Shown here: positions 48,785-64,000 of the stretch, one piece after another | How the letters are laid out: every line of letters begins with the position of its first letter | Numbering within the stretch: position 1 is the stretch's first letter | Assembly (NCBI GenBank): GCA_947631015.1 | Contig: CANRJS010000002.1 | Coordinates: forward strand, 1,726-65,725 | Length of the DNA stretch: 64,000 nucleotides | Direction: 5' to 3' | DNA from: an uncultured Clostridia bacterium | Lineage (GTDB): Bacteria; Bacillota; Clostridia; Oscillospirales; JAAYOS01 | Program-made: the position numbers and the translations under genes | Notes under the pieces: generated by a model | Seen by the model: only the letters and a program-made list of their open reading frames with translations | Databases searched by the model: none | What the model was told of the DNA's origin: nothing

Positions 48785-50683
48785 TCACTCCGCCGGCATC
48801 CAGACGCGCATCTGGTTTACGCCTCGGTTTGCCCAGGTGTAGTAAGGAACGGCGCGCGCCGTCACCGGCGTCCTTTTCGGTTCCGCCGAGGTGTAGAGCG
48901 CGCCGGAGTCCTCCGTGCGGAGCGCCTCTGCGGATATCGCCGCCGTGCCGCCGAGCATATCCGGGTCGAATTTCTCCGCGCGGAGGCGTCCCCCGCGCCG
49001 CAGCGCAAGCGACAGCACGTCGCCTCCGTTGTCCGCTCCCTCGAAGCAATAGACGAGCGGCCCGCGCTCGACGGCGACTTTTCCCGAAAGCGCCGGGACC
49101 TTCGGCGAGGCGTAGACGTACCTCGGAGCGTCGTCGAGCGTGACGGTTATGCGGTCGCCGTCCTCCGAGTCGATATAGACGTATCCCTTCTCCGGCTCGC
49201 AGACAAACTCCTGCCCGTTGAGCTCCACAGAGAACTTATTCCGGCTCCAGCCGGGTATCCTTACCGCTATTCTGCCGCCGCTGCGGACGTCGTAGCGCAC
49301 CTCGAAGCCGTAGGGGTACCCGGTCGAACACTCGAGCGATACGCCGTTTGCAAACTCCACCTCGCCCGCGAGGAACATATTGCAGAACGCGGTGTCGTGC
49401 GTCTCGCCGTAGGCGTACTTGCCGAGCGACGCTATCAGCCGCGCCGCGTTCGGCGGGCAGCATGCGCAGGCAAACCAGCCCGGCCGCTCACAGAGGACGT
49501 GCCGCTCGGTCGCAGCCGAGCCGCTTATTCCGGGCACGCACTCGAGCGGGTTGACGTAGAAGAACCTCCTTCCGTCAAGCGACATCCCCGCAAGGACGGT
49601 GTTGTAGAAGGCGCGCTCCATCACGTCGGCGTACTCGCCGTCGTGGTCGCGTTCGAGCATGCGCATGGCAAAGAATATCAGTCCCACCGAGGCGCAGGTC
49701 TCGGCGTATGCGGTGTCGCCCGGGAGGTCGTAGTCGACGGTGAACGCCTCGCCGTGGACGGTCGAGCCGACGCCGCCGGTGACGTACACCCTCTTTTGCG
49801 TGACGCTCTCCCAGAGACGGCGGCAGGCGGTGGAAAGCTCCGCGTCGCCGGTCTCGGCGGCGACGTCCGCCATCCCGCTGTAGAGGTACATCGCGCGGAC
49901 GGCGTGACCCACGGCGTCCTGCTGCTCGCGCACCGGCGCGTGGGACTGCTGGTACTCGCGGTCGGCGGCGTCGTTTCCCCAGACCTCCCAATCGCGCTCC
50001 CTTGCCTCGCGCTCGAAGTAGTACGGCTCGCGTCCGCGCGCGTCAATAAAGTGTTTCGCGAGCTCGAGGAGCTTCCGCTCCCCCGTCGCGCGGTACATCC
50101 GCACGAGCGCGAGCTCGACCTCCGGGTGGCCGGAGTATCCGTCGCGCCCCTCCTCGACAAAATGCCGGTAGATGTGCAGGGCGCACTTCGTCATGACGTC
50201 GAGGAGCTTCCTCTTGCCGGTTGCCTCAAAGTATGCGGCGGCGGCCTCCATCATGTGCCCCATGCAGTAGAGTTCGTGCGCCTCGAGAAGGTCCGTCCAG
50301 CGCTTCTCGCGGTCCTTTATCGTGAAGCGCGTGTCGAGGTATCCGTCCTCATCCTGCGCCGCCGCTATGATGTCGATAAACGCGTCCGCCTCGCGCTCGA
50401 GCTCGTCCGACGGAAAGACCGCGAGCGAGTACGCCGCCGCCTCGAGCCACTTCGCGGCGTCGCTGTCCTGAAAGACCATGCCCCGGAAGCCGTCGCCCGT
50501 GTTCTCGCCGCGCAGAGCCTTTCCGGCGTTGATGAAGTTCCGTATCGCGTGGCTCTCCTCCGCGCCGGGGACGGCGTCGCGCAGTATGTCGTACTGATAG
50601 GGTATGACGGTGTCCGCCACGAGCCTCTGGTACTTCTCCGCAAACCCCGCCGGGCGGTACGCCGAAATATGTATCTGTCTCAT
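48785..50683 (-). CDS. Glycoside hydrolase family 127 (beta-L-arabinofuranosidase-like)
   Basis: HELY, GHAVR, ETCAS, CACCPPN. Confidence 0.9.
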   Translation of the reverse strand: MRQIHISAYRPAGFAEKYQRLVADTVIPYQYDILRDAVPGAEESHAIRNFINAGKALRGENTGDGFRGMVFQDSDAAKWLEAAAYSLAVFPSDELEREADAFIDIIAAAQDEDGYLDTRFTIKDREKRWTDLLEAHELYCMGHMMEAAAAYFEATGKRKLLDVMTKCALHIYRHFVEEGRDGYSGHPEVELALVRMYRATGERKLLELAKHFIDARGREPYYFEREARERDWEVWGNDAADREYQQSHAPVREQQDAVGHAVRAMYLYSGMADVAAETGDAELSTACRRLWESVTQKRVYVTGGVGSTVHGEAFTVDYDLPGDTAYAETCASVGLIFFAMRMLERDHDGEYADVMERAFYNTVLAGMSLDGRRFFYVNPLECVPGISGSAATERHVLCERPGWFACACCPPNAARLIASLGKYAYGETHDTAFCNMFLAGEVEFANGVSLECSTGYPYGFEVRYDVRSGGRIAVRIPGWSRNKFSVELNGQEFVCEPEKGYVYIDSEDGDRITVTLDDAPRYVYASPKVPALSGKVAVERGPLVYCFEGADNGGDVLSLALRRGGRLRAEKFDPDMLGGTAAISAEALRTEDSGALYTSAEPKRTPVTARAVPYYTWANRGVNQMRVWMPAE

Positions 50684-50707
50684 CCGTTTCTCCTCCGTGG
50701 GAAGCGA

Positions 50708-51976
50708 CTATTTTGTCTGCATCGAGAGCCATTCGAGCAGGCTCACTTCTTTTCCGTCCGCCGTGACCGGACGCCCGTCGTAGTCCAGGCGGCAGTCGTC
50801 GTTGAACACCGGTATCCACGCGAAGTGACCGAGGTACTCGAACGGTTTGCCGTCCGGCCCCCGGAAGCCCTCGTGTATGTCCTCGATCTTCGGCCAGAAG
50901 GTGAAGTGTACGTTCCTCGCCCCGGCGTCGATAAGGCGCCTGTAAGTCGCCTCGACGGTCGTCTCCGGCTTCACGACGGGGTCGTTCTTCGCGTGTGTGA
51001 ACCATATCGGCAGATGCACGATCTTTTCAAGCGCCTCGTCGGTTATCGTTCCGTCGTAGAGCGCTTCGCAGACCGGGAAGGCGGCGGCGAAGAAGTCGGG
51101 ATAGTCGAGTATCATCCGCATCGTCATAAAGCCGCCGTTGCTGTCTCCGCCGATGTATATGCGGCTGCGGTCTACGGCCGGGTTCTTTTCGACGAACTCA
51201 TCTATACACGCCTTCAGCGCTTCGACATACATGCTCTTACCCGACTGTCCGTACTGCCCGGAGCCGTCGTTCATCCAGAAGGTTTTCGTCTGAGGCACAA
51301 GGATGTATGCTCCGCCGAAGGACTTCTGTATTTTCTCTCCGGCGAACGCCGTCACCTTGTTTGCGGTGTAGGCTATCGTCGCGTCGACGCCGCCCTCGCC
51401 CGCGCCGTGCAGCCATACGATGAGCGGGTGCTTCTCCCCCGGCGTCTGCGGCACGAAGTAGCCGTAGTTCAGCGGCTCGGGCGCGTAGGACGAGGTCGAG
51501 TTGAGGAAGCCCTCCGCGTCCGGGCAGAAGTCGCCGAGGGGATAGTCCCAGCAGAGCCCGCCGAGAGCTCCGGCGTCCGACTCGAGCTTTGCCGTCTGCG
51601 TGACGGTGTAGCGCATCTTCACATAGACGTTGAGGCCGTTCGGCGCGGATATGCGGCTCGAGAGCTGCGTCATCGGGCCGTAGGCCGTCTCGAGCGTGAC
51701 GAACTCACCGGCGTCCGCCCTGTTCCCTTCGATGTCCGACGGATACGCCGCGAGGACGGGAATATAGCCCCGGCTCGGCTCCCTGTCGTCCCGTGCCATC
51801 CAACTCTTCGGCAGCAGGAGCGCGTCGCCCTTCTCGTCCATCCGCTCGACGTAGACCGAGAACTTCTCCGGCAACGTCTCCTCCGCCTTCACGCTGCCGG
51901 GGACCGGCAGTATCACCTTCGTCACATACGGCCCGTAGTCGGTGACGCGCGTAAGAGTGTAGTAACCTCTGCTCAT
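50708..51976 (-). CDS. Esterase with N-terminal Ig-like domain (Thermotoga EstA-like)
   Basis: PLIVWLHGAGEGG, GDSNGG elbow, HAKND, GHFAW. Confidence 0.75.
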   Translation of the reverse strand: MSRGYYTLTRVTDYGPYVTKVILPVPGSVKAEETLPEKFSVYVERMDEKGDALLLPKSWMARDDREPSRGYIPVLAAYPSDIEGNRADAGEFVTLETAYGPMTQLSSRISAPNGLNVYVKMRYTVTQTAKLESDAGALGGLCWDYPLGDFCPDAEGFLNSTSSYAPEPLNYGYFVPQTPGEKHPLIVWLHGAGEGGVDATIAYTANKVTAFAGEKIQKSFGGAYILVPQTKTFWMNDGSGQYGQSGKSMYVEALKACIDEFVEKNPAVDRSRIYIGGDSNGGFMTMRMILDYPDFFAAAFPVCEALYDGTITDEALEKIVHLPIWFTHAKNDPVVKPETTVEATYRRLIDAGARNVHFTFWPKIEDIHEGFRGPDGKPFEYLGHFAWIPVFNDDCRLDYDGRPVTADGKEVSLLEWLSMQTK

Positions 51977-52094
51977 CTAAAAATACCTCCCTGTCGGCGG
52001 GCATTCCGCCGGAAAATTCTTCGGGCGCACGACCCGCATATTACTTGACCTAATTATATCACCGGAAATACTGACGCTCAATATCCGCGTATAC

Positions 52095-52131
52095 AAAAAT
52101 GCGCGGGGATGCAGTTCCCCGCGCATTTTGC
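52095..52131 (-). terminator. Terminator after the dfgB-like gene
   Basis: AAAATGCGCGGGGA/TCCCCGCGCATTTT. Confidence 0.8.
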
Positions 52132-52133: not shown

Positions 52134-52574
52134 TTACACTATGATAAGCGTCCGCTCGTTGACGTGGTGGCCGAACTCCGGCAGGATGACGAAGTTCTCC
52201 TTGTCCGGGTCAAGCGACTCCTGCATCATCGGCGGCATATAGCTTGAGGTGAAGCAGTAGCCGTATTTGAGGTGATGATACCCCTGCGACAGTCCGCCCG
52301 GCTTCTTCACCTTGAGGACGGCGAGGTCGGTGGGCGTCCAGTGCGTCCTGAAGTCGACTGCCATCTCCTCGTTAGTGTAGTCTTCTCCGCCGAGGCACCA
52401 CACGATGTTCTCCTTCTCTATTTTCTCCCCGTCCACAAAGAGCGTGCCGGGACGGAGCTGGCTTAAGTACACGCCGCGATAGTACGGAAGCCGCACCTTG
52501 AACTGGAACCCGGTTATCTCTCCGTTCTCCTTTATGTTGCGGAAGCCTACCGACTGAATAACTTCTCTTTCCAT
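52134..52574 (-). CDS. dfgB: C-glycoside deglycosidase beta subunit (DUF6379; DfgB/DgpB-like)
   Basis: GFRNI..GEITGFQFKVRLPYYRG..LS, KPGGL..GYH, SYMP; adjacent to its TIM-barrel partner. Confidence 0.85.
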   Translation of the reverse strand: MEREVIQSVGFRNIKENGEITGFQFKVRLPYYRGVYLSQLRPGTLFVDGEKIEKENIVWCLGGEDYTNEEMAVDFRTHWTPTDLAVLKVKKPGGLSQGYHHLKYGYCFTSSYMPPMMQESLDPDKENFVILPEFGHHVNERTLIIV

Positions 52575-52583: not shown

Positions 52584-53456
52584 CTAGTCTCCGATGAGCC
52601 GTTTCAGCATGATGTGCTGCTTTCTGAGGGTCGCGCCGACCTCGTAGCCGGGGTCGTACTTGTCCGCGCCCTCGTACTCGCTGAGCAGGTACCCGTCCCA
52701 GCCGTGGTCCTGAAGGATCTTCACTATCTCGGGATAGGGTATTGTAGTCTCCTCGAAGTCGTCCGACATGTGTATGAACTTCGCGTGGCAGCAGTAGATG
52801 TACGGCAGCAGCGGGATGATGTCCTCCGGCTCGTTCGCCTTGTACTGCGGGTCGACCCACTCTCCCTCGCCGAAGCGGCTGCGGAACACGCTGAAGTCGA
52901 TGTTGAGCCCGAAGTTCTTCGTGCCGGTCTTGTTGATGAAGTCTACGTACTCCGAGACCATCTTTCCCTTGAGGTTCGAGGGGGTGTGTATCTCGGGGCA
53001 CATCACAATGCCGAGCTCCTCCGCGAGCGGGAGCGCGGCGGAAATTATCTCGCGCCAGTTCTCCACCGGCTCGAGCGCGCCGTTTATGACCGGCATTTTC
53101 GTCCGCATGACGGTAAAGCCGAGGCGGTGCGCAAGGCGCAGGTCGCGGCAGAGCATCTCCACGCTCTCCTCGGTGGTGAGCTCGCGCCCGCCGAGGACGT
53201 GGCTATCTATCCAGTGGCCGTACTCGACCGGGACTATCTCGTACTTGTCGCAGAGGCGGAACCACCTGTCCACCCACTCGTCGGTCGGGTAGGGGTAGTT
53301 CTCAATGTGGGTATTCGCGAGGATCTCGATGCCGTGCGCGCCCATGTCGCACACGTCCTCGAAGCAGTCTTCGAGGTTCTTGGTAAGTCCGAACTCCGCC
53401 GAGTAGCTGTAAAGCGCCACACCGCGCTTCGGACCCTTCCGGTCATAGCGATACAA
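52584..53456 (-). CDS. dfgA: C-glycoside deglycosidase alpha subunit (TIM barrel; DfgA/DgpC-like)
   Basis: [27 protein letters not shown] putative metal ligands; GGAGG RBS before TTG. Confidence 0.85.
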
Positions 53457-53537: not shown

Positions 53538-53592
53538 ATTATACCCGACTGCGGACTGTATGTCAAATCGTGGCAGTCATTTGCAGTCATTT
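53538..53592 (-). promoter_or_regulatory. dfgAB sigma-A promoter with upstream tandem repeat
   Basis: TTGACA-17-TATAAT; GCAGTCATTT x2 at 53573-53592. Confidence 0.7.
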
Positions 53593-53598
53593 TGCGGC

Positions 53599-53627
53599 AA
53601 AAACCGGAAGCGCGGGGCTTCCGGTTT
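53599..53627 (-). terminator. Terminator of trkAH
   Basis: AAACCGGAAGC/GCTTCCGGTTT. Confidence 0.7.
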
Positions 53628-53630: not shown

Positions 53631-55070
53631 TCAGAATTTCTGCCAGTTTTCCTTTGTGAAGAGCAGCAGGAGCGGGAACAGCTCGAGACGTCCCGCGAGC
53701 ATGTCGAATATCAGCACGAGCTTCGAGAGCGCAGAGTACCCCGCGAAGTTCTGTGCGGGACCGACCGCGCCGAGGCCGGGGCCGATGTTGTTGAGCGTCG
53801 CCGCGACGGCGGTGAAGTTCGAGGTGAAGTCGAACCCGTCAAAGGATATGACGAGCACCGACACCACAAATATCAGTATATACGAGAACATAAAGACGTT
53901 TGTCGAACGCACGACCTCGTGCGCTATCGACTTTCCGTCGAGCGCTATCTTCTTAACGCTCATTGGGTGTAGCAGGCGGCGGAGCTCCTTTCGCATCGTC
54001 TTAAAGAGGATGATACAGCGGGACACCTTCACGCCGCCGCCGGTGCTTCCGGCGCAGGCGCCGATGAACATCAGCAGCACGAGTATCGCCTTGCTTGCCT
54101 CCGGCCAGAGGTCGTAGTTCGTCGTGGTGAAGCCGGTGGTCGTGATTATCGAGCCCACCTGGAAGGAGGCGTGGAGCAGAGCCGTGGAGATGTGCTCGTA
54201 GAGCCCGCGTATGTTTATCGTGATGACGATTATTGCCGTGAGGATGATGCCGGCGTACACCCTCACCTCCTCCATCATGACCGCCCTGCGGAACTTCCGC
54301 ATGAGCAGGAGGAAGTAGAAGTTGAAATTCACGCCGAACATTATCATGAACACCGTGATGACGGTCTGGATGTAGGGCGAATAGCTCGCTATGCTGTCGT
54401 TCCGAACGCCGAAGCCGCCGGTGCCCGCCGTTCCAAAGGATACGGTCACGGCGTCGAACGCGGGCATCCCGCCCGCGAGCAGGAATACTATCTCAAGGAC
54501 GGTGAGGAAGATGTATATCCCGTAGAGTATCTTTGCCGTGGACTGCACCGTCGGCGCGAGCTTTTCCACCTGCGGGCCGGGGCTCTCCGCCTTCATCAGA
54601 TTGACGTGCGAGCCGCCGGAGAGCGACGTTATCGAGAGCAGGAACACGAGCACGCCCATTCCGCCTATCCAGTGCGTGAAGCTCCGCCAGAACAGCAGGC
54701 CGTGGCTCATCGCCTCAACGTCGTAGAGTATGCTCGCGCCGGTGGTCGTGAAGCCGGACACCGTCTCGAATATCGCGTCGACGGGGCTTGCTATCTCCCC
54801 GGATATGAGGAACGGGAGCGAACCCACCACGCTTATCATTATCCACGCGAGCGCGGTTATCGTAAATCCGTCGCGGAGCTGGAGCACGCGGTTTCGCGGC
54901 TTGCGCCGCGAGAGCAGAAATCCCGCGGCGGCGCATACGGCAATGGTGACGCCTATCGCCATGGCGCACCCCTCGCGGTAGATGAGCGCCGTCGCGAGCG
55001 GCAGGAGCAGCAGCACCGCAAGCGTCAGAAGCAGCCGTCCCAGTATGAAAATTATCATCGAAAAGTTCAT
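53631..55070 (-). CDS. trkH: TrkH potassium uptake protein
   Basis: SGFTTTGA, GTGGF, TTTGF and NIGPG pore loops. Confidence 0.95.
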   Translation of the reverse strand: MNFSMIIFILGRLLLTLAVLLLLPLATALIYREGCAMAIGVTIAVCAAAGFLLSRRKPRNRVLQLRDGFTITALAWIMISVVGSLPFLISGEIASPVDAIFETVSGFTTTGASILYDVEAMSHGLLFWRSFTHWIGGMGVLVFLLSITSLSGGSHVNLMKAESPGPQVEKLAPTVQSTAKILYGIYIFLTVLEIVFLLAGGMPAFDAVTVSFGTAGTGGFGVRNDSIASYSPYIQTVITVFMIMFGVNFNFYFLLLMRKFRRAVMMEEVRVYAGIILTAIIVITINIRGLYEHISTALLHASFQVGSIITTTGFTTTNYDLWPEASKAILVLLMFIGACAGSTGGGVKVSRCIILFKTMRKELRRLLHPMSVKKIALDGKSIAHEVVRSTNVFMFSYILIFVVSVLVISFDGFDFTSNFTAVAATLNNIGPGLGAVGPAQNFAGYSALSKLVLIFDMLAGRLELFPLLLLFTKENWQKF

Positions 55071-55083
55071 TGAGACCCCTCTG

Positions 55084-56442
55084 TTATCTGGCAAGAATAC
55101 CGCTTATGTCCTGCATTCCCTGCTCGAGGGTGACGACTATGACCGTGTCCCCCGGCTTTATGACGTCGCGGCCGAACGGGATTATCACCTTTCCGCCCCT
55201 GATGATGCTGCATATACGGAGATTCGGCTTCAGCTTCAGCTCGGAGAGCGGCACGCCGGTGACGGCGGACTCTCCTTCCACGTTGAACTCGAGCGCCTCG
55301 ACGCGGTTGTCGAGTATCCGGTAGAGCGTCTTGACGTTGTTTCCGGCTTGATTTTGGAGGGCGCGGACAGCCTGCACGATGTAGTCGCACACGAGATATT
55401 TGGGGTATACGACGCTGTCTATATCCATGCCGTCGAGCAGGTCGTCAAGCTCGAGCCTGTTGACCTTCGTGACGACCTTCGTAAGCCCGAGCTTTCCTGC
55501 AAAGAACGCGAGCAGTATGTTCTCCTCGTCGATATTCGTAAGCGCCACAAAGGAGTCGGTCTGCGGAAGCCCCGCCTCGATTAGAAACTTCCTGTCGGTG
55601 CCGTCTCCGTGAAGTATCGTCGCCTTCGGCAGGAGCTCGGAGAGACGCTCGCAGCGGCGGAAGTCGCTCTCGACTATCCGCACGCGTATGTCGTGGTCAA
55701 GAAGGTCCTTTGCGAGGTAGTAGCCTATCGTGCCGCCGCCGACTATGAGCGCGCTGCGGACGGCGTGCGTCGGCATGCCGAGCTTTCCGAAGAAGCCGCC
55801 CGCCCTGCCGCTCTGACAGAGTATCGTGACGAGGTCGCCCTCCCTCAGCAAAAATTCGCCGTCCGGGATGACGACGCCGGTCTCGCGCTCGACGGCGCAG
55901 AACAGCGCGTCCGAGCCGAACTTCTTCGACACCTCGCGCAGGCGCAGTCCCTCGAGCCCCTGACCGTGAGTGACGCGGAACTTTATCAGGCGCACCTTGT
56001 CGTCCGCAAAGCTGTCTATCTTGCTTGCCGCCGGGAAGCGGAGCAGGCGCGAGATCTCCTGCGCCGCCGCAAGCTCCGGGTTGATTATCGTGGCTATGCC
56101 AAGCTGCTGCTTGATGAAGTCGAGCTCGCGGCTGTAGAGCGGGTCTCGCACGCGCGCTATCGCGTAGCAGTGCCCGGACTTCCGCGCGAACATACAGCTC
56201 AGAAGGTTCAGCTCGTCCGAGCCGGTGACCGATATGAACACGTCGGCGCGGTCGACCGCCGCCTCCATCAGCGTGTTTATCGAGCAGCCGTTGCCGACGA
56301 TGCCCATGACGTCGAGCTCCTCGCTTATCCGCTCTATCTTGTCCGCGCTGGTGTCTATGACGGTCACGCGGTGCCCTTCGTCGGTGAGCTGCGCCGCGAG
56401 CGCCGTACCGACCTTGCCGCACCCGACAAGTATTACCTGCAT
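55084..56442 (-). CDS. trkA: TrkA potassium transporter RCK subunit
   Basis: Two RCK domains (GCGKVG, GGGTIG). Confidence 0.95.
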   Translation of the reverse strand: MQVILVGCGKVGTALAAQLTDEGHRVTVIDTSADKIERISEELDVMGIVGNGCSINTLMEAAVDRADVFISVTGSDELNLLSCMFARKSGHCYAIARVRDPLYSRELDFIKQQLGIATIINPELAAAQEISRLLRFPAASKIDSFADDKVRLIKFRVTHGQGLEGLRLREVSKKFGSDALFCAVERETGVVIPDGEFLLREGDLVTILCQSGRAGGFFGKLGMPTHAVRSALIVGGGTIGYYLAKDLLDHDIRVRIVESDFRRCERLSELLPKATILHGDGTDRKFLIEAGLPQTDSFVALTNIDEENILLAFFAGKLGLTKVVTKVNRLELDDLLDGMDIDSVVYPKYLVCDYIVQAVRALQNQAGNNVKTLYRILDNRVEALEFNVEGESAVTGVPLSELKLKPNLRICSIIRGGKVIIPFGRDVIKPGDTVIVVTLEQGMQDISGILAR

Positions 56443-56698: not shown

Positions 56699-59089
56699 AT
56701 GGAAAAGTACAGAAACCCGTCGCTGCCGGTTGTCGAAAGAGTGGACGACCTCATCGGCCGTATGACCGTCCGCGAGAAGGTCATGCAGCTCACCTGCGTC
56801 TACGGCTTCGGAGGCATGCTCGACTTCTCCGAGCTCGGGGACGGCATCGGGCAGGTCGCCATGAGCCACGGCTCGCAGACGATGGAGCAAAACGTCGAGC
56901 TTGTCAACCGCGTGCAGAAGCACCTAATTGAAAATACACGCCTCGGCATCCCCGCTCTTTTCCATGTGGAGACGCTGAACGGCGGCGCCCTCACCGGCGC
57001 GACGGTGTACCCCATCCCTCTCGGCCTCGCGGCGTCCTTTGACGACGCGCTCGTACATGAAATGACCTCCGAGATACGCCGCGAGATGACAGCCTGCGGA
57101 CAGAAGCTCGCGCTCGCGCCGGTGCTCGACATCTCGCGTGATCCGCGCTGGGGCCGTCAGGGCGAGACCTACGGTGAAAGTCCGACGCTTGCCGCCGCCA
57201 TGGGCAGCGCATACATAAGCGGCATACAGGGTGGGCTCGGCGAGGACGGAATGGCGTCCTGCGCGAAGCACTTCCTCGGCTACGCCGCAAGCGAGGGCGG
57301 CATAAACATGGCGGGCGCGCACATCGGCCCGCGCGAGCTTCGCGAGGTGTACGCAAAGCCGTTTGCCGCCGCCATTGACAACGCCGGCCTTCAGGGCGTG
57401 ATGAACTGCTACCTCGCGGTGGACGGAGAGCCGGTCACCGGCACGAAGAAGTATCTGACGGAGCTTCTGCGCGACGAGCTCGGATTTGACGGGTGCGTCG
57501 TCGCCGACTACGGCTCGATAGACAAGCTCTTCGACGTCTACCACATCGCCGAGGACTACCCGTCCGCCGGAGCGATGGCGCTGTCGGCAGGTCTCGACGT
57601 CGAGACCCCGCGCCGCATCTGCCTTGACGACGAGTTCATCCGCCGCGTGGAGGCGGGAGAAATTCCCATGGAGACGGTCGACACCGCCCTCCGCCGCCAC
57701 CTGACGCTCAAATTCAAGCTCGGACTTTTTGAAAAGCCCTACGCCGACCTCGAGGCGGCAAAGGCGCTCTGCGGTTCTGAGGCACACACCGCCACATCGC
57801 TCCGCCTCGCGCGCGAGAGCATGACGCTTCTGAAAAACGAGCGCGGGATACTTCCTCTGCGGGACAAGAAGCGCATCGCCGTCGTCGGCCCCAACGCCGA
57901 CAATGTGCGGGCGCTCTTCGGAGGGTACACCTACCCCGCCTTCTACGAGAGCATGAGGGACATCTTCCTCGGCATCAGCGAGACTATGGGTCTCGAGGGC
58001 GTCGGAGGGGACGACGAGCAGATGGCAGCCCTCAAGAATATGCTCTCGTCGCTTCCCGAGGTAAGCGACCTCATACGCCGCGATTACAGGGGCGTGAAAA
58101 CCGTCCTGGAAGCCGTAAGGAGCGCCGCGCCGTCCGGCACGGAAATAGTCTACGCCCGTGGGTGCGGGAACCTCGAGACCGACGACAGCGGCTTTGACGA
58201 GGCCGTCCGCGCGGCGGCGGAGAGCGAGGTCACGCTCTACGTCTGCGGCGGGCGGAACGGCTCCGCCGACGGCTGCACGATGGGTGAGAACGTAGACGCG
58301 AGCCACATCGGCCTGCCGGGGTGCCAGGAAGAGCTTCTCCGCGCGCTTACGGATACCGGCACGCCGCTCGTCGTCGTCCACATGGACGGCAGGCCGCTCT
58401 CGAGCGTCTACGCCTCGGAGCACGCCGCCGCCATACTCGAGGCGTGGCACCCCGGGCAGATGGGCGCCGAAGCCATCGCGGATACGCTTTTCGGAAAGTC
58501 GAACCCCTCGGGGCGGCTCCCGGTGACGGCCGTCCGCCACTCGGGTCAGGTGCCGATATATGCCGAACAGAACCGCGGAAGCGGCGTCCTCGGGCGCGGT
58601 CAGAGCAACAACAACATCACGCAGGGGTATGTGGACGAGCCGGGCTTCCCGCTCTGGCCGTTCGGCCACGGTCTCTCCTACACCTCCTTTGAAATATCCG
58701 GTCTGCGCGTCTCCTCCGGCGAGATGCCGCCGGACGGCAGGGTCACGGTCTCCTGCACCGTGAAAAACACCGGCAATATGACGGGCGCGGACGTCGTCGA
58801 GCTCTGGTTCCGGGACAAGACCGCAAGCGTCGTGCGGCCGAATAAGGAGCTCGCGGGGTTTGCGAGGGTCGAACTCGCTCCGGGTGAGAGCCGCGAGATC
58901 TGCCTTAACTTCTACGCCGACGAGACGGCGTTTCTCGACAGCCGTCTCCGCTGGACGGTCGAGGCGGGCGAGGTCGAGCTTCTTCTGGGCGACACGACCG
59001 AGAGCCTTATGCCGGCGGGGACGGTGCGCATCACCGAGTCGAAAGCGCTCGAAAGCGGCAGGAGGCACTACTTCGCGGAGCGCGCGTGA
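56699..59089 (+). CDS. Glycoside hydrolase family 3 (beta-glucosidase/xylosidase)
   Basis: RDPRWGR, AKHF, ADY nucleophile, FGHGLSYT, C-terminal Fn3-like domain. Confidence 0.93.
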   Translation: MEKYRNPSLPVVERVDDLIGRMTVREKVMQLTCVYGFGGMLDFSELGDGIGQVAMSHGSQTMEQNVELVNRVQKHLIENTRLGIPALFHVETLNGGALTGATVYPIPLGLAASFDDALVHEMTSEIRREMTACGQKLALAPVLDISRDPRWGRQGETYGESPTLAAAMGSAYISGIQGGLGEDGMASCAKHFLGYAASEGGINMAGAHIGPRELREVYAKPFAAAIDNAGLQGVMNCYLAVDGEPVTGTKKYLTELLRDELGFDGCVVADYGSIDKLFDVYHIAEDYPSAGAMALSAGLDVETPRRICLDDEFIRRVEAGEIPMETVDTALRRHLTLKFKLGLFEKPYADLEAAKALCGSEAHTATSLRLARESMTLLKNERGILPLRDKKRIAVVGPNADNVRALFGGYTYPAFYESMRDIFLGISETMGLEGVGGDDEQMAALKNMLSSLPEVSDLIRRDYRGVKTVLEAVRSAAPSGTEIVYARGCGNLETDDSGFDEAVRAAAESEVTLYVCGGRNGSADGCTMGENVDASHIGLPGCQEELLRALTDTGTPLVVVHMDGRPLSSVYASEHAAAILEAWHPGQMGAEAIADTLFGKSNPSGRLPVTAVRHSGQVPIYAEQNRGSGVLGRGQSNNNITQGYVDEPGFPLWPFGHGLSYTSFEISGLRVSSGEMPPDGRVTVSCTVKNTGNMTGADVVELWFRDKTASVVRPNKELAGFARVELAPGESREICLNFYADETAFLDSRLRWTVEAGEVELLLGDTTESLMPAGTVRITESKALESGRRHYFAERA

Positions 59090-59119: not shown

Positions 59120-59176
59120 GCGCCGCTGCGGTATCCGCGCGTCCGACGGGAAGGAAACAGTCGTTAGGCTCCGCAG
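59120..59176 (+). repeat. Degenerate copy of the 3' end of the downstream GH106-like gene
   Basis: Matches 62004-62060 with 20-bp identical core GCGTCCGACGGGAAGGAAAC. Confidence 0.8.
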
Positions 59177-59203
59177 ACGGCTGCCTTTTGTATTTCATAC
59201 ATC

Positions 59204-59249
59204 TGTCCGGGTTTTTGTTGTTGCCCGGTGCTTTTCTCTGATGTATACT
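59204..59249 (+). promoter_or_regulatory. GH106-like gene promoter with shared 21-bp element
   Basis: TGTCCGGGTTTTTGTTGTTGC overlapping TTGCCC-17-TATACT. Confidence 0.6.
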
Positions 59250-59301
59250 AACGGTATGAACAAATCGGGCGCGAGCGCCGTGAAAATAGAGGAGATACGT
59301 A

Positions 59302-62064
59302 ATGAAAATCTGGAACGATATTAAGATGGATGCGCGTCCGCGCGTCCGCTACTGGGTACCCGCCGCCGCCATGGACGAGGGCGACCTGCGTGCCGACCTG
59401 CGCCGCCTGCGGGACAGAGGCTTCGGCGGCGTCGAGGTCGTCGTGCTTCAGCTCGTCCCGCCCGAGGTCCTGAGAAGCGAGCGCGGCTGGGGCACCGGAG
59501 AGTGGGACAGGATAAGCGGGATACTGAACGACGAGACGAAGAAGCTCGGCATGTCGCTCGATTTCGCGATAGGCCCCGGCTGGCCGATGGGCTCCCCCGC
59601 CGTTCGCGACGCGGACGACCCCGCCGCGCTCTATGAGCTCACATGGGGTGTGCTCGAGGTGTCCGGCTCCTACAACGGGCCGCTGCCCGAGCGCCGAAAG
59701 ACGCACGACGAGGGCACGCCGCACCTCCTGCACGTCCTCGCGTACCGCGAGACGGGCGTGAAAACGCTCTACTCCTCGAGCTATATCGACCTGCGCCCGT
59801 ATGTCTCGGACGGCGTCCTCCGATACGACTTTCCGGAGGGACGCTGGCTCATCTTTGCCTTCTGGGAGCAGCCCGCCGTCCAGAAGATAAACGCCGGCAT
59901 GACCTACACAATAGACCATCTCAGCCGCGCCGGGGTCGAGGCGGTGGAGGCGTACTGGGAGAAGGCCCTCGCGGAAAATGACCTCGGACACGTGGAATCG
60001 CTCTTCTGCGACTCTCTCGAGTACGAGGTGGCGCTTGACTGGACGCCGGATATGCTCCGCGAGTTCGAGACGCGGCGCGGCTACTCGCTGCTGCCCTATC
60101 TGCCGCTTCTCGGCATGCGGAACAGTTTTCCCGCCTGCGACCCGCCGCTCTGCGACTTTGAGGACGTGGATCGGAGCGAGCGTATCCGCAGCGACTACCG
60201 CGAGGTTCTGACCGAGCTCTACTGCGAGTATCACCTTGCGGAGCTCGAGCGCTTCGCGGAGCGGCACGGCAAGACGATACGATACCAGGTCGCCTACAAC
60301 AAGCAGTTCGAGCCGGAGCGCTGCGGGCTGTACGTCGCGATCCCGGAAAACGAGGCGCTCGGACGTGCCGCCGTGGACTGTCAGAAGATAATGGCGGCCG
60401 CCGCGCACCTCGGGCGAAAGGCGCGTTACTCCTTCGAGTGCGCGGCGGAGTTCGGCTACACCTACTCGCAGGAACACGACGACCTCTTCTGGTGGATAAA
60501 GCGCAGCCTGATGGCCGGCATGAACGCACAGGTGCTGCACGGCGCCTCCTACTCCGGCGCGACCGACATTCCCGGCGTCGAGTGGCCGGGATATGAGGGT
60601 TTCTCCAGATTCGTCTCCAACGAGTGGGGGCGCACCCTCGACGGCGCTCACACCCGCGGCGTTCTCGACGCGGCGGCGCGTCTCAACACCGTGTTCCGCC
60701 TCCCCGCCCGCGTGGACATAGCCGTCTATCACGGCGAATACTCCTGCGACGGGAAAGGCGACGAGTACTATATCTACCCCGACGGCGGGCTTCTCTCCCG
60801 CCTCGGTTACAGCTACGAGTTCCTTTCTGAAAAGCTGCTCTCGCTCGACGTCTGCACCGTCCGGGACGGGCGTCTCGACCCGGACGGCGTCCGCTACCGC
60901 GCGCTCGTCCTGCCGGAGCAGAGGTACGCGAGCCGCGAGCTGCTGCAAAACGCCATACGCCTCGCGGAGAGCGGGCTTCCCGTTCTGTTCGTCGGGGGAA
61001 AACCGTCCTGCGCGCGCTGCGAGTGTGAGTTCGACACCGAAGAGAAGCGCCGCGAATGGGCATCGCTTCTCGAGCGGGCGTGGGCGCTCGGCGCGCACAC
61101 GGCGACGCTTGAAGGCGTCCCGGAGGCCCTTGCCGCGCTCGGCGTCGTTCCCTCGGTCTCGCTTGAAAGCGGCATCGACATCATGACCGCCACACATGAC
61201 GGCGGCGACGTCAGATACTGCGCTCTCTACGCGAATAACCGCGTCCTTCAGGCACAGCCCGGCGAGGTCGCGGACGAGATACTCGCAAGCGCGGACTACA
61301 AAAAGGGTACCGTCAAGCGGGCGTACTCCCGCCCCGGCGAGAAGAGCCGTAGAAAAATCTCCGTCTCGCTCGAGGGCGAGGGGCGCGTGCTCCTCATGGA
61401 CCCGTGGAGCGGACGTTCGCGCGACGCGGGGTTTGTCCCCGACGGCGCGGGACGGATGCAGGGCACGGTCTCAATCGAGGAGGACGAGCTTCTCCTGCTC
61501 GCGCTCGACCGCTCCGAGCAAGCTCACGCCGTCCCGGAGCAGGAGGACATCTCCGACGCGCCGCTCCTCCCGGTCGACTTTGAGAACGTCACTCTCTACG
61601 CCTTCGAGCCGAACGAGCCGGGCGAAAAGAGCTTCCTCCGAAGCGGCTTCGGATCCGAGGGCAGGATCTTCACGCTCACGGAGCCCCTGCCTTGGTGCGA
61701 GCTCAGCCCGGAGCTTGCGAAGTTCTCCGGGCGCGGCGTCTACCGCGCGGGCTTCACCGTTCTGGACGGCGGAGAAAATGCCCGCGCCGTGCTCGAGCTC
61801 GGGAACGTGTCCGACACCTTCACCGTCCGGATAAACGGCGTCGAGACCCCGTTCCCCGACCAGGTGCTGAAGCGCGCCGACCTCACGGGGCTCCTCCGCC
61901 GCGGAAGAAACGAGCTCGAGATAGAGGTCGTTTCGACACTCTACAACGCACTCTACGAGCCGGGCATGTCTCTCGGCGGCGTGCTGCCCCTCCCCTACGA
62001 GACGCGCCGCTACGGTATATGGGCGTCCGACGGGAAGGAAACGGGCGTGAGGCTCGCAAAGTGA
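59302..62064 (+). CDS. GH106-like glycoside hydrolase (alpha-L-rhamnosidase-like)
   Basis: RPRVRYW, GFGGVE, GPGWP, FCDSLE; C-terminal beta-sandwich. Confidence 0.75.
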   Translation: MKIWNDIKMDARPRVRYWVPAAAMDEGDLRADLRRLRDRGFGGVEVVVLQLVPPEVLRSERGWGTGEWDRISGILNDETKKLGMSLDFAIGPGWPMGSPAVRDADDPAALYELTWGVLEVSGSYNGPLPERRKTHDEGTPHLLHVLAYRETGVKTLYSSSYIDLRPYVSDGVLRYDFPEGRWLIFAFWEQPAVQKINAGMTYTIDHLSRAGVEAVEAYWEKALAENDLGHVESLFCDSLEYEVALDWTPDMLREFETRRGYSLLPYLPLLGMRNSFPACDPPLCDFEDVDRSERIRSDYREVLTELYCEYHLAELERFAERHGKTIRYQVAYNKQFEPERCGLYVAIPENEALGRAAVDCQKIMAAAAHLGRKARYSFECAAEFGYTYSQEHDDLFWWIKRSLMAGMNAQVLHGASYSGATDIPGVEWPGYEGFSRFVSNEWGRTLDGAHTRGVLDAAARLNTVFRLPARVDIAVYHGEYSCDGKGDEYYIYPDGGLLSRLGYSYEFLSEKLLSLDVCTVRDGRLDPDGVRYRALVLPEQRYASRELLQNAIRLAESGLPVLFVGGKPSCARCECEFDTEEKRREWASLLERAWALGAHTATLEGVPEALAALGVVPSVSLESGIDIMTATHDGGDVRYCALYANNRVLQAQPGEVADEILASADYKKGTVKRAYSRPGEKSRRKISVSLEGEGRVLLMDPWSGRSRDAGFVPDGAGRMQGTVSIEEDELLLLALDRSEQAHAVPEQEDISDAPLLPVDFENVTLYAFEPNEPGEKSFLRSGFGSEGRIFTLTEPLPWCELSPELAKFSGRGVYRAGFTVLDGGENARAVLELGNVSDTFTVRINGVETPFPDQVLKRADLTGLLRRGRNELEIEVVSTLYNALYEPGMSLGGVLPLPYETRRYGIWASDGKETGVRLAK

Positions 62065-62196
62065 GCGCAGTCCGTTCATTTCCCCGGGGTTTTCGGCGGT
62101 TCCTCTTGCGTCCGCCGGATATATTTGGTACAATAGTGTCAGCATACGGGACGGGCGGCGCGTCCGCAGTCCCCCAAAACAGGGAGAGGTGAAAGC

Positions 62197-64000
62197 ATGA
62201 AAGCCGAACACAGGATACTGTTTGAGGAAACAAGTGTCGGAAAAATGACGATGAAGAACCGCTTCGCTATGGCTCCGATGGGTCCGCTCGGGCTCGGGGA
62301 CGCGGACGGCGGCTTCAACCAGCGCGGCATCGACTACTACACCGAGCGCGCGAAGGGCGGCACCGGGCTCATCATCACCGGCGTGACGTTTGTCGACAAC
62401 GTCGTCGAGGAGCACGGTATGCCGAACTGCCCGAGCCCCACCTACAACTCCATCCAGTTTGTCCGCACCGCACGCGAGATGACCGAGCGGATACACGCCT
62501 ACGGCTCGAAGGTCTGGCTGCAGATGTCCGCCGGATTCGGACGGGTGACGATACCCACAAACCTCGGCGAATACCCGCCGGTCGCACCGTCGCCGATAAT
62601 GCACAGGTGGCTCGACAAGGTCTGCCGCGAGCTCACAAAGGACGAGATACACACCATCGTGAAGAGCTTCGGGGACGGCGCGTTCAACGCCAAGCGCGCC
62701 GGCTTTGACGGCGTGGAGATACACGCCGTCCACGAGGGATACCTGCTCGACCAGTTCGCCATATCATTCTTCAACTACCGCACGGACGAGTACGGCGGCA
62801 GCCTCGAGAACCGTCTGCGCTTCGCGCGCGAGGTCGTAGAGGAGATAAAGCGCCGCTGCGGGGACGACTTCCCCGTCGCCCTCCGCTACAGCCCGAAGAG
62901 CTTCATCAAGGACTGGCGCAAGGGTGCCCTGCCGGGCGAGGAGTTCGAGGAGAAGGGTCGCGACCTTCCGGAGGGCGTCGAGGCGGCAAAGCTCCTCACG
63001 GAGTACGGCTACGATTGCCTCGACGTCGACGTCGGCAGCTACGACGCGTGGTGGTGGAGCCATCCCCCGATGTACCAGAAGAAGGGTCTCTACATCGAGT
63101 ACGCAAAGCTTGTGCGTGACGCCGTCTCCGTCCCGGTGATATGCGCGGGACGCATGGACGACCCGGACATGGCGGCGAAGGCTGTCGCGGACGGCGCGTG
63201 CGACATAGTGTCGCTCGGGCGTCCGCTCCTCGCCGACCCTGACTATGTGAACAAGCTCCGCGCGGGACGCGTGGAGTCGATACGTCCCTGCCTCTCCTGC
63301 CACGAGGGCTGCATGGGAAGGATACAGGAGTTCTCCGCGCTGAACTGCGCCGTCAACCCTGCGTGCTGCCGTGAGCGTGCGGCGCGCCTCGTCTCCGCGG
63401 CAAAGCCGAAGAAGGTCCTCGTCGTCGGCGGAGGCCCCGCCGGATGCGAGGCGGCGCTTGTCCTCGCCGAGCGCGGGCACACTCCGGTGCTCTGCGAGGC
63501 GGGAAGCATCCTCGGCGGCAACCTCATCCCCGGCGGCGCGCCCGACTTCAAGGAGGACGACCGCGCGCTCGCGAAGTGGTTTACGCACGAGCTCGCGGAG
63601 CGCGGCGTCGAGGTGCGGCTCAACACCCGCATGAGCGCGGAGGACATCCTTGCGGAGAAGTTTGACGCGCTCGTCCTCGCGACCGGCTCGCGTCCTAAGA
63701 CGCTCCCGCTCGAGGGCGGAAACGTCCTCACGGCAGAGGATGTGCTGCTCGGCAAGGCCGACCCGGGAAAGAAAACGGTCATCGTCGGCGGCGGACTCGT
63801 CGGTTGTGAGACCGCGCTGTGGCTGAAAAAGAAGGGCGTCGAGGTAACGATAGTCGAGGCGCTGCCGAAGCTCCTCGCGGTCAACGGGCCTCTCTGCCAC
63901 GCGAACAGCGAGATGCTCGAGGCGCTGATACCCTTCAGCGGAATAGAGACGGTCTGCGGCGCGGCGCTCTCCGGCGTCGACGCGTCGGGCGCTTCCGTCA
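62197..64000 (+). CDS. 2-enoate (cinnamate) reductase, FldZ/Enr-type OYE flavoprotein with 4Fe-4S motif; 3' partial and absent from the ORF track
   Basis: Manual translation: KNRFAMAPMG, ERAKGGTG, GFDGVEIHAVHEGYLLDQF, CLSCHEGC..CAVNP, GGGPAG, GGGLVG; RBS and TTGCGT-17-TACAAT promoter. Confidence 0.88.
   Translation, partial: MKAEHRILFEETSVGKMTMKNRFAMAPMGPLGLGDADGGFNQRGIDYYTERAKGGTGLIITGVTFVDNVVEEHGMPNCPSPTYNSIQFVRTAREMTERIHAYGSKVWLQMSAGFGRVTIPTNLGEYPPVAPSPIMHRWLDKVCRELTKDEIHTIVKSFGDGAFNAKRAGFDGVEIHAVHEGYLLDQFAISFFNYRTDEYGGSLENRLRFAREVVEEIKRRCGDDFPVALRYSPKSFIKDWRKGALPGEEFEEKGRDLPEGVEAAKLLTEYGYDCLDVDVGSYDAWWWSHPPMYQKKGLYIEYAKLVRDAVSVPVICAGRMDDPDMAAKAVADGACDIVSLGRPLLADPDYVNKLRAGRVESIRPCLSCHEGCMGRIQEFSALNCAVNPACCRERAARLVSAAKPKKVLVVGGGPAGCEAALVLAERGHTPVLCEAGSILGGNLIPGGAPDFKEDDRALAKWFTHELAERGVEVRLNTRMSAEDILAEKFDALVLATGSRPKTLPLEGGNVLTAEDVLLGKADPGKKTVIVGGGLVGCETALWLKKKGVEVTIVEALPKLLAVNGPLCHANSEMLEALIPFSGIETVCGAALSGVDASGASV

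Follow-up and report, generated by a model that had tools for sequence, protein, structure and literature searches.

The C-glycoside deglycosidase EuCGD is formed by DfgA and DfgB of Eubacterium cellulosolvens (PDB 7BVS, 7DRE, and 7EXB; Mori et al. 2021, PMC8563793). It accepts C6-glycosides but not C8-glycosides. The related gene clusters are dfgABCDE of E. cellulosolvens and dgpABC of strain PUE. Unlinked oxidase genes have already been reported for Catenibacillus (PMC11170127). Among the 2-enoate reductases, ER-BC reduces trans-cinnamate and 2-hexenedioate (PMC5460604). FldZ has a narrow, aromatic substrate range, and other characterized 2-enoate reductases have broad ones.

We analyzed a 64,000-nt stretch (the window) of contig CANRJS010000002.1, retrieved from an uncultured Clostridia bacterium (assembly GCA_947631015.1). 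The host is a gut member of the Clostridia with a 1.89-Mb genome, and the GC content was 61%. The same contig contains GH5, GH78, and another GH3 gene, each single among housekeeping genes. The order along positions 48785-64000 is GH127, esterase, dfgB, dfgA, trkH, trkA, GH3, GH106-like, and reductase (Table 1). A sequence-only reading had named seven of these genes, and Pfam found all seven. Its gene list was right, except that it omitted trkA and trkH, which lie between the deglycosidase pair and GH3. The set is split over both strands, and five or more transcription units are predicted for it. These 15 kb are probably a series of independent transcription units, not one pathway locus, in which dfgAB encodes an EuCGD-orthologous C-glycoside deglycosidase (probability about 0.8). 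Judged from its sequence, dfgAB is the sole unit of the 15 kb with a specific, well-founded predicted function.

Table 1. Genes, repeats, and predicted signals at positions 48698 to 64000 of the window
Feature	Position	Strand	Basis or remark
Predicted 17-bp terminator hairpin + U-run after GH127	48698..48741	-	within 105-nt fold, -63.1 kcal/mol, z -4.4
GH127, beta-L-arabinofuranosidase-like	48785..50683	-	three GH127 Pfam domains, 344/84/35 bits; 24 bases past esterase gene
Serine esterase, Ig-like N-terminal domain (EstA type), predicted cytoplasmic	50708..51976	-	PF18435 (EstA_Ig_like) + alpha/beta-hydrolase families
Promoter-like site of esterase-GH127 unit	52053..52081	-	10/12 with TG extension
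Predicted terminator hairpin + U-run directly past dfgB stop	52088..52131	-	-26 kcal/mol, z -5.1, 0/200 shuffles as stable
dfgB, beta subunit, CGDB/DUF6379	52134..52574	-	PF19906, 126.7 bits; 9 bases after dfgA
dfgA, alpha subunit, metal-binding TIM barrel without lid domain	52584..53456	-	AP_endonuc_2 (Pfam)
Promoter-like site of dfgAB, TTGACA-17-TATAAT	53538..53566	-	12/12 consensus matches
Predicted terminator hairpin + U-run after trkH	53596..53627	-	-17.2 kcal/mol, z -4.0, 0/200 shuffles as stable
trkA-trkH, potassium uptake, no glycoside role	53631..56523	-	TrkH, TrkA Pfam/NCBIfam matches
Promoter-like site of trkA-trkH	56529..56556	-	11/12 matches
Repeat D1 copy a, upstream of GH3	56605..56678	+	74 nt, 73% identical to 59194-59267
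GH3 glycosidase, beta-xylosidases closest, accessory cassette	56699..59089	+	GH3 N, C, Fn3-like domains
Repeat D3 copy a, just past GH3 stop	59120..59171	+	52 nt, 87% identical to 62004-62055
Repeat D1 copy b, upstream of GH106-like	59194..59267	+	contains promoter-like site 59221-59249
GH106-like (alpha-L-rhamnosidase-like) cassette	59302..62064	+	PF17132, 105.5 bits in two stretches
Repeat D3 copy b	62004..62055	+	inside 3' end of GH106-like gene
2-Enoate reductase, Fe-S flavoenzyme	62197..64000	+	Oxidored_FMN (OYE) + Pyr_redox_2; cut by window end

DfgA aligned gap-free with 7bvs_A, residues 1-290 on 1-290, at 581.4 bits (~240/290 identical, ~83%, by hand count). DfgB matched 7bvs_B ("DfgB") at 256.6 bits (~110/146 identical, ~75%, by hand count). 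The proposed likeness of the TIM-barrel/DUF6379 pair to DfgA/DfgB is borne out as near-orthology by these scores. DgpBC (7bvr) is distant, at 137.6 and 65.2 bits. In DfgA, residues E155, H157, D187, H224, K226, E260, and E262 are spaced like the AgCGD2 ligands. DfgAB retains all of the metal, catalytic, and C6-specificity residues, and the equivalents of Leu128-alpha and Pro115-beta are both present. The pair is a close orthologue of EuCGD and, by homology, would cleave 6-C-glucosyl flavones in their 3''-oxo form.

DfgAB appears to be encoded by a self-contained bicistron, with a putative Mn/Ni-binding TIM barrel as its alpha subunit. Its predicted substrates are 3''-oxo-6-C-glucosyl flavones (isoorientin, isovitexin) and 3'-oxo-mangiferin, in which it would cut the C-C bond. 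The reaction would be His-base/metal-assisted and beta-elimination-like, and it would yield the aglycone and 1,5-anhydro-D-erythro-hex-1-en-3-ulose. The prior 3''-oxidation may fall to a Gfo/Idh/MocA enzyme of the DgpA type, encoded apart from the pair on contig C12 (L085:778-1932, minus strand), which scored 361.5 bits to DgpA 7xr9 and 365.3 bits to DgpA1 9m3d. Perhaps a DgpA2-like enzyme on contig C14 also serves (L086:808-1932, minus strand; 181 bits to DgpA2 9m37). Both candidate genes are surrounded by housekeeping genes.

dfgAB is insulated, with its own consensus promoter and terminators on both sides, as predicted signals. The promoter-like site lies 82 bases ahead of the TTG start, and AGGGAGG is just upstream of the TTG. 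The terminator past dfgB was overlooked by the consensus scan and was found by sequence and folding. The esterase gene has GGAGG ahead of its ATG. No operator-like word common to the five upstream regions rose above shuffles, except one marginal 14-mer.

DfgB lies alongside DfgA in 78 of 80 loci from other species, and the remaining two loci stop at a contig edge. The esterase, trk, and reductase genes are common to only 3 of the 80 (L004-L006, DfgA 99-100%). In the flanks of the other 77 (median 10 kb per side; 5 kb or more on each side in 45/77), GH127, esterase, and GH106-like genes were each found at none, a reductase homologue at one (34%), and GH3 homologues at nine (23-34%). The usual neighbors there are a Gfo oxidoreductase (31 loci), an MFS_2 carrier (26), AraC-GH39 (25), and further TIM barrels. 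Phyletic patterns also differ among 31 genomes: DfgA occurs in 9, the reductase at 69% identity or more in 6, the esterase in 11, and GH127 in 5. Genome G004 has dfgAB (89%) in a different context, and G003 has no dfgAB. The block of esterase-GH127, dfgAB, trkAH, and reductase is kept in all three nearest relatives, which says little because protein identity is 94-100%.

The full reductase contains 664 aa (L003:123-2117). The motif HAVHEGYLLDQF falls at residue 176. A cysteine motif, C-2X-C-3X-C-11X-C, follows at residue 365. It is identical to ER-BC (P0066, UniRef100_G2TQU6) at 470 of 662 positions (71%), and the suggestion that the OYE/4Fe-4S gene encodes an enoate reductase is borne out by comparison with this characterized cinnamate-reducing enzyme. 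Its characterized relatives take cinnamate and p-coumarate. By these matches it is a genuine enoate reductase, predicted to be of the cinnamate type, from a family that is conserved and very widely distributed. In G011 and G020, its orthologues adjoin either TetR, CoA-ligase, and acyl-CoA dehydrogenase genes or unrelated ones.

The esterase has GDSNG at residue 277 and scored 87.8 bits to the 3doh esterase. Its family matches include PHB-depolymerase/esterase models. Orthologues occur in 10 of 12 family genomes; those in G003 and G004 adjoin AraC, GH32, and another esterase. GH127 scored 616.2 bits against 4qjy and 499 bits against 3wkw. On the aceric acid hydrolase model of NCBIfam, its score is far under the cutoff (386 versus 950 bits). 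The GH3 ORF spans 56225-59089 on the plus strand, with the likely start at 56699. It scored 594.7 bits to the beta-xylosidase 7zb3, and its best NCBIfam model is beta-xylosidase/alpha-L-arabinosidase (579 bits, under the cutoff of 1050). GH127 and GH3 look like a putative beta-L-arabinofuranosidase and beta-xylosidase of cell-wall oligosaccharide use. The GH106-like protein scored just 72.2 bits to 6q2f.

trkH occupies 53631-55094, and the trkA ORF occupies 55084-56523, with the family match from residue 28. In close relatives, the interval from trkA to the reductase gene holds GH3 with or without GH106, GH106 by itself, or a gene for a lipoprotein. GH3 is absent at congener locus L005; DNA contigs from runs X5 and X11 lack it as well, across a joint. 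The GH106-like gene was found in none of five congeners at an E value of ≤1e-20 and is absent from L004-L006; within its genus, only this genome has the cassette. The D1 core TGTCCGGGTTTTTGTTGTTGC is invariant in four of four aligned sequences, and D1 could be a common control region for GH3 and GH106-like. The part of the window examined shows no integrase or mobile-element gene. The repeats suggest a possible mechanism of gene replacement at this site. The esterase-GH127, trkAH, GH3, GH106-like, and reductase units are probably neighbors through gene insertion and replacement. The enzymes other than DfgAB are predicted to work in the cytoplasm, on plant glycosides or oligosaccharides that the cell has imported.

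The single cytoplasmic pathway first proposed has adjacency as its only basis. Its milder form, in which separately promoted units make up a functional neighborhood or regulon for acylated, O-glycosylated C-glycosylflavones in this lineage, is improbable. Here the esterase would deacylate; GH3, GH106-like, and GH127 would trim O-sugars; DfgAB would cleave the C-glucoside together with the remote oxidase; and the reductase would use the hydroxycinnamates set free as an electron sink. In grasses, C-glycosylflavones commonly carry O-linked xylose, arabinose, and rhamnose as well as acyl groups, and the chemistry is therefore plausible. A true deglycosidase pair and a true enoate reductase are present, the arrangement is retained in three close relatives, GH3 and GH106-like share the D1 element, and a trans-acting regulator common to the units may exist. 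The absence of signal peptides, as had been stated, also fits one cytoplasmic route: by a crude hydropathy test (not SignalP), none of the seven enzymes has a signal-peptide-like N terminus, and their Kyte-Doolittle means over 10-residue stretches peak at 1.35 or less within the N-terminal 45 residues, against 2.40-2.84 for three lipoprotein-type binding proteins of the window. The genes are adjacent within 15 kb, and four carbohydrate-active genes there are a local excess against the ~26 counted genome-wide. That count is a lower bound from a post hoc tblastn test of the 1.89-Mb genome with 16 GH/esterase queries, including the window's own genes (24 places, 15 contigs). The clustering is only modestly beyond chance. 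Co-occurrence in relatives, set beforehand as the refuting test, was limited to three near-identical congeners, all without the GH106-like gene, and GH3 is replaced or absent in close relatives. Predicted terminators and promoters separate the units, dfgAB is insulated, trkAH lies in the middle, and the 15-kb locus has no transporter, regulator, or 3''-oxidase. GH127 resembles beta-L-arabinofuranosidases, and we know of no such linkage in flavonoid glycosides. The single-pathway claim lacks support and does not pass the co-occurrence test.

It is possible, though doubtful, that the other genes help to use plant cell-wall fragments and that dfgAB was inserted among them without sharing their role. 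Imported oligosaccharides of arabinoxylan, pectin, or extensin would lose acetyl or feruloyl groups to the esterase, beta-xylose or alpha-arabinose to GH3, beta-L-arabinofuranose to GH127, and rhamnose to GH106-like, and the reductase would remove the hydroxycinnamates set free. The GH127 and GH3 matches, the PHB-depolymerase/esterase models, and the single GH5, GH78, and GH3 genes of the contig fit this. However, none of these enzymes reaches a specific family cutoff, the GH106 assignment is weak, and the substrates come from distant relatives only. The units are also mutually no more syntenic in relatives than with dfgAB. Least probable, by a little, is that the DfgAB-like pair targets something other than flavone 6-C-glucosides, such as other 3-keto-glycosides or O-glycosides, and that its C-glycoside label misleads. 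The oxidase, carrier, and regulator are not adjacent to the pair, D126G and L127A adjoin Leu128 in the active-site loop, and 12 AP_endonuc_2 and 4 Gfo genes in the genome suggest wider 3-keto-sugar chemistry. Against this stand the identity to an enzyme characterized by biochemistry and structure, the gap-free alpha alignment, the retained ligand, catalytic, and named specificity residues, and the Catenibacillus precedent (PMC11170127).

GH127 shares the three-domain architecture of the beta-L-arabinofuranosidases of Geobacillus (4QJY) and Bifidobacterium (HypBA1, 3WKW). The trkA-reductase interval resembles flexible genomic islets in swapping genes between conserved flanks with repeats D1 and D3, but it is very small, with one or two genes. 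The reductase resembles ER-BC, FldZ, and Enr in length (664 versus 663-665 aa), in its OYE-like FMN and FAD/NADH domains, and in its cluster motif; its G011 and G020 orthologues have no glycosidase linkage. As for the dfgABCDE and dgpABC clusters, the two-step logic is possible, since a DgpA homologue and a DgpA2-like protein are encoded, but the oxidase genes sit on other contigs. The window pair lacks the usual flanking dfgCDE, carrier, and regulator. Its host belongs to a high-GC, small-genome Clostridia lineage. The pair differs from EuCGD at ~17% of alpha and ~25% of beta residues, and its DfgA loop has D126G and L127A. It shares with EuCGD two adjoining genes in identical order and a lid-less alpha subunit with the long M121-N133 loop. 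DfgAB adds a new member to an enzyme family already known.

The gene order at the end of the window was read from Pfam scans and is given in the table below. The genome (GCA_947631015.1) contains 1.89 Mb in 43 contigs, is 98% complete, and has a GC content of 61%. The sequence-only reading had joined seven enzyme genes from position 48785 to the window end into one phenolic-glycoside pathway. All seven were present in the Pfam scans, and the observation is real. The members of its list were correct, but trkAH, in the middle, had been left out. It had also described the enzymes as lacking signal peptides, and this agrees with their hydropathy: all seven peak at no more than 1.35 over 10 residues and have no hydrophobic N-terminal segment. 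The comparison set, three lipoprotein-type binding proteins from the same window, peaks at 2.40 to 2.84 and contains lipoboxes.

Genes at the end of the window, with positions in the window, strand, and basis of the call
Feature	Position	Strand	Basis
cdaR and cdaA	end at 48540	-	housekeeping
GH127	48785-50683	-	Pfam
EstA-type esterase with Ig-like N-domain	50708-51976	-	Pfam
CGDB/DUF6379 (dfgB)	52134-52574	-	PF19906
AP_endonuc_2 TIM barrel (dfgA)	52584-53456	-	PF01261
trkH	53631-55094	-	Pfam
trkA	55084 to about 56442	-	Pfam
GH3	56699-59089	+	Pfam
GH106-like gene	59302-62064	+	Pfam
OYE/Fe-S flavoenzyme (reductase)	from 62197, stop 188 bases beyond the window; 664 aa, L003:123-2117 in the overlapping stretch	+	Pfam

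The terminators and promoters around dfgAB predict a stand-alone bicistron. An 11-bp hairpin with a U-run lies directly 3' of the trkH stop (-17.2 kcal/mol, z -4.0 on folding). It is followed by a perfect TTGACA-17-TATAAT (12/12), the predicted promoter of dfgAB, and by a leader to dfgA, about 80 nt long, in which AGGGAGG precedes the start. The two genes are separated by 9 bases, and a 16-bp hairpin with a U-run lies directly 3' of the dfgB stop (-26 kcal/mol, z -5.1 on folding). Upstream of the esterase gene are a predicted promoter (10/12 with a TG extension) and then GGAGG. The esterase-to-GH127 spacing is 24 bases, and a 17-bp hairpin with a U-run closes GH127. On the plus strand, neither GH3 nor the GH106-like gene is followed by a convincing terminator (z 0.2 and -0.35). 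The hairpins after trkH, dfgB, and GH127 were found by reading the sequence and then folded; a consensus terminator scan missed all three and returned 11 sites against 11.0 in shuffles, and all of these signals are predictions. The region contains 12 promoter-like sites against 2.6 expected. Rfam gave 0 matches in 44000-64000 at E<=0.1, so no known riboswitch or leader lies ahead of dfgA.

Five upstream regions were searched for a shared operator (length/mismatches of 9/0, 10/1, 12/2, and 14/3) against 15 mononucleotide shuffles. The sole word above the shuffles was the 14-mer TTCCCCGGGGTTTT, present in four upstream regions. It was rejected as a regulon operator; it resembles a terminator-type GC palindrome with a T-run. 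One RNA sequencing run (X15) covered a small share of the locus as assembled contigs, which give neither level, strand, nor transcript ends. With 17 of 23 at 90-95% likeness, these contigs come from a relative.

DfgA was scanned for in one genome per species. This gave 150 stretches, of which the best 80 (76-100% identity) were analysed. Among these, 41 loci are labelled Lachnospiraceae. The others are from Oscillospiraceae, Acutalibacteraceae, Anaerovoracaceae, Christensenellaceae, one Coriobacteriaceae, and unclassified Clostridia. DfgB follows DfgA in 78 of the 80 loci, and the remaining two stop at a contig edge. The esterase, trkAH, and the reductase stand beside dfgAB only in the three loci from the closest relatives (L004 to L006; DfgA 99-100%). 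These also carry GH127, which is complete in L006; the copies in L004 and L005 are truncated where the contig ends. The other 77 loci were searched with tblastn (E<=1e-10, at least 50% coverage) over flanks with a median of 10 kb per side (5 kb or more on each side in 45/77; 1,150 kb in total). In these flanks, GH127, the esterase, the GH106-like gene, and trkH were each found at 0/77 loci. trkA was found at one, a reductase homologue at one (34%), and GH3 homologues at nine (23-34%).

The genes also part company among the 31 genomes made up of this one and 30 relatives. DfgA is present in nine. The reductase is present at 69% identity or more in six, including G011 and G020; G020 has the reductase without DfgA, and G004 has DfgA without the reductase. 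The esterase was retrieved from 11 (10/12 in the family); G003 and G009 have it but lack DfgA. GH127 was retrieved from five at E<=1e-100, a threshold that missed the cut copy in G002. The GH106-like gene was found in 0/5 congeners. The neighbours differ as well. In G004, dfgAB (89%/77%) sits among MatE, GH42, and PALP genes. The reductase orthologue lies beside TetR, CoA ligase, and acyl-CoA dehydrogenase genes in G011 and beside unrelated genes in G020. The esterase orthologue lies beside AraC, GH32, and a second esterase in G003 and G004.

DfgA of the window is 89% identical to that of G004 (L099:10674-11546), against only 53-56% for TrkH and 40% for TrkA. The GC3 of the window pair is fully host-like (0.88 for dfgA and 0.80 for dfgB; 0.81-0.86 for neighbour genes). 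Recent import of dfgAB was rejected as a reading of the composition, since its GC3 resembles that of the neighbours and gives no sign of import; the GC dip at 52-54 kb is due to the spacers and to codon positions one and two. No convincing direct repeats flank dfgAB or the esterase-GH127 genes. A quick DfgA tree (L004 to L083) barely clustered the family labels (17 changes, where shuffled labels averaged 18.4 and 21/200 shuffles were as low). The spread of DfgA may be explained by transfer between gut Clostridia or, alternatively, by extreme constraint.

Close relatives differ in what occupies the site between trkA and the reductase (56443-62196). The window contains GH3 plus the GH106-like gene. 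G001 (L006) and G005 (L004) contain GH3 alone. G002 (L005) contains a 307-codon ORF, which on hand translation shows a lipobox-bearing signal peptide; after this ORF come the final bases of a GH3 gene as a 3' remnant. In DNA contigs from two studies (X5 and X11), position 56577 is joined to 59194 through 28 letters that equal the L004 upstream allele. This joint, GH106 without GH3, has depths of 3.25 and 5 and sides of 31 and 92, and it hints that the GH106-like gene stands alone at the site in these contigs. Repeat D1 (74 nt, 73% identity) lies ahead of both GH3 and the GH106-like gene in the window, and its core TGTCCGGGTTTTTGTTGTTGC is invariant in 4/4 sequences. Repeat D3 (52 nt, 87% identity) occurs after GH3 and again inside the GH106-like gene, at its 3' end. 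Together, the two repeats are what would be expected if a single crossover had joined two alternative occupants of the same site. In L006, an additional 931-aa GH3 lies between GH127 and cdaA (L006:14701-17496), a position taken up in the window by a 244-base spacer alone. The varying occupants and this additional gene show that glycosidase genes are gained and lost one at a time here. The trkA-side site is a tidy example of strain-level glycosidase gene turnover.

The GH127 protein contains the catalytic, middle, and C-terminal GH127 domains (344, 35, and 83.9 bits in Pfam) and matches 4qjy, a beta-L-arabinofuranosidase, at 616 bits. The GH3 protein matches beta-xylosidases (7zb3, 8c7f) at 595 bits, and the esterase matches 3doh at 88 bits. 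The GH106-like protein matches PF17132 above the cut-off (105.5 bits) in two stretches over profile positions 216-680 of 743. It reaches only 72 bits against 6q2f and 169 bits against the NCBIfam rhamnosidase model, for which the cut-off is 1300, and its matches to 5mqm are confined to the C-terminal jelly roll. Among nine proteins, only TrkA received an equivalog-level NCBIfam name.

Single GH5, GH78, GH3, and esterase genes are scattered among housekeeping genes along the contig. The window itself has a GH5 gene at 17423-18526 and a GH78 gene (alpha-L-rhamnosidase, 391 bits) at 28469-31423, amid rsgA, adhE, and znuABC, and these lone genes indicate a one-at-a-time layout of glycosidases in this genome. 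Genome-wide, 16 queries returned at least about 26 GH or esterase genes on 15 contigs; this is a lower bound, so glycosidase density is treated only qualitatively. Just beyond the window (L003:6661-12092), a radical-SAM/SPASM maturase-like gene adjoins a sulfatase gene. Next to these are a circularly permuted GH3, with the C-domain before the N-domain, and a LacI regulator.

The reductase is of the 665-aa type and contains an OYE-like FMN domain, an FAD/NAD(P)H domain, and the C-2X-C-3X-C-11X-C [4Fe-4S] motif, which is stated for 2-enoate reductases in PMC5460604. It is identical at 470/662 positions to P0066 (UniRef100_G2TQU6), the accession of ER-BC, which is described in that source as reducing trans-cinnamate and 2-hexenedioate. 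FldZ (665 aa) is described as preferring cinnamate and p-coumarate (PMC5882074). We are confident from the identity to characterised ER-BC that the protein is a 2-enoate reductase, as the sequence-only reading had proposed. It is predicted to carry out NADH-dependent reduction of cinnamate-type 2-enoates. The family is huge and conserved, with 7,982 of 7,989 scored candidates at E<=1e-50 and many about 70% identical. No NCBIfam equivalog cut-off was reached by the reductase (427 bits against 825 for BaiCD). The interval from its stop to an ECF S-component gene is about 1.9 kb with two long ORFs and no Pfam match (L003:2117-4022); in L006, it is about 470 bases.

A single locus would be marked by co-transcription or cross-species synteny. 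Here the units are separated by predicted terminators and promoters, trkAH is interposed, phyletic patterns differ, and synteny is restricted to three near-identical relatives among 80 loci. The one-pathway proposal fails its own check, co-occurrence in relatives; adjacency is all that binds the seven genes into a pathway. The same reading took the combination to be undescribed, and a full-text literature search for a gene cluster of C-glycoside, enoate reductase, and arabinofuranosidase genes did return only general reviews, most likely because the combination is not a unit. The analysis reveals no new pathway, and the striking combination results from neighbourhood rather than from a conserved unit.

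It is improbable, in our estimate, that single-gene cassettes gathered beside dfgAB by insertion and replacement at hot spots now form one cytoplasmic, separately promoted route for the acylated, O-glycosylated 6-C-glucosylflavones of grasses in a rabbit-gut-type Clostridia lineage. In such a route, the esterase, GH3, and GH106-like protein would strip decorations, DfgAB and a remote DgpA would cut the C-C bond, and the hydroxycinnamates released would serve the 2-enoate reductase as an electron sink. If the route were true, the range of decorations that a strain can remove would be adjusted through the swappable slot beside trkA.

Within this neighbourhood, the dfgAB pair has a clear identity, and the same organism appears to encode a glycoside 3''-oxidoreductase of the DfgE/DgpA type. 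The genome contains four Gfo/Idh/MocA genes and 12 AP_endonuc_2 barrels. The Gfo gene on contig C12 matches DgpA (7xr9) at 361.5 bits and DgpA1 (9m3d) at 365.3 bits. That on contig C14 matches DgpA2 (9m37, solved with isoorientin) at 181 bits and has a LacI-type gene beside it. Both are unlinked to dfgAB, each alone amid housekeeping genes. dgpA and dgpBC are likewise described as unlinked in Catenibacillus (PMC11170127). A remote DgpA-type oxidase probably feeds the window pair. Elsewhere, two places, G000:C9:22059-23252 and G000:C30:16212-18797 (L084, L089, L087, L092, and L095), have a Gfo gene immediately adjacent to one or two barrels. These groups may be DfgCD-like or other 3-keto-glycoside systems.

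Forage and herbal medicines commonly contain mangiferin and C-glycosylflavones such as isoorientin and isovitexin. To our knowledge, the aglycones of these compounds are released only once bacteria have cleaved the C-C bond. What is new here is a DfgAB-type enzyme, assigned with confidence, and a candidate DgpA-type oxidase in one uncultured, small-genome lineage of Clostridia from herbivore gut metagenomes. DfgA is retained in at least 80 species from several families (76-100% identity), which aids annotation and the prediction of who deglycosylates C-glycosylflavones and mangiferin.

In other species, the usual neighbours of DfgA follow the dfgABCDE pattern. Outside the closest relatives, 31 of the 80 loci contain a Gfo oxidoreductase (often in two copies), 26 an MFS_2 carrier, 25 an AraC-GH39 fusion, and 13 and 8 further AP_endonuc_2 barrels, plus sugar ABC parts; these counts are lower bounds because ORF picking was crude. 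The flanks of the window pair contain no such TIM-barrel and Gfo genes, carrier, or regulator.

The pair itself belongs, by every available sequence test and with confidence, to the known and structurally solved DfgAB/EuCGD family, as had been proposed. DfgA matches PF01261 (67.5 bits) and aligns to 7bvs_A over residues 1-290 on 1-290 with no gap (581.4 bits). DfgB matches PF19906 (126.7 bits) and 7bvs_B, deposited as 'DfgB' (256.6 bits). Identities counted on the printed alignments are about 240/290 for alpha and 110/146 for beta. DgpC and DgpB of strain PUE are much farther away (137.6 and 65.2 bits). Mori et al. (2021, PMC8563793) describe EuCGD as an alpha4beta4 metal enzyme that cuts 3''-oxo-C6-glycosides (homoorientin, isovitexin, and mangiferin) and not C8-glycosides. 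The metal ligands of this family are given there as one His, two Glu, one Asp, and one Lys, with a His base at the first Glu +2 and a supporting Glu at the last ligand +2. The window DfgA contains the ligand set (E155, D187, H224, K226, and E260), the base (H157), and its partner (E262). These motifs are identical to those of EuCGD, and the spacings of +32, +2, and +34 match E147/D179, H269/K271, and K271/E305 of AgCGD2. EuCGD is described as having no lid domain and a longer M121-N133 loop, and as keeping out C8-glycosides through Leu128-alpha and Pro115-beta (PMC8563793). The window pair also has no lid domain and the same loop length. It departs from EuCGD at D126G and L127A of DfgA. L128 is kept in alpha, and the Pro115-beta equivalent is P114. 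The window DfgAB is predicted by homology, like EuCGD, to assemble as alpha4beta4 and to cleave 3''-oxo-C6-glycosides.
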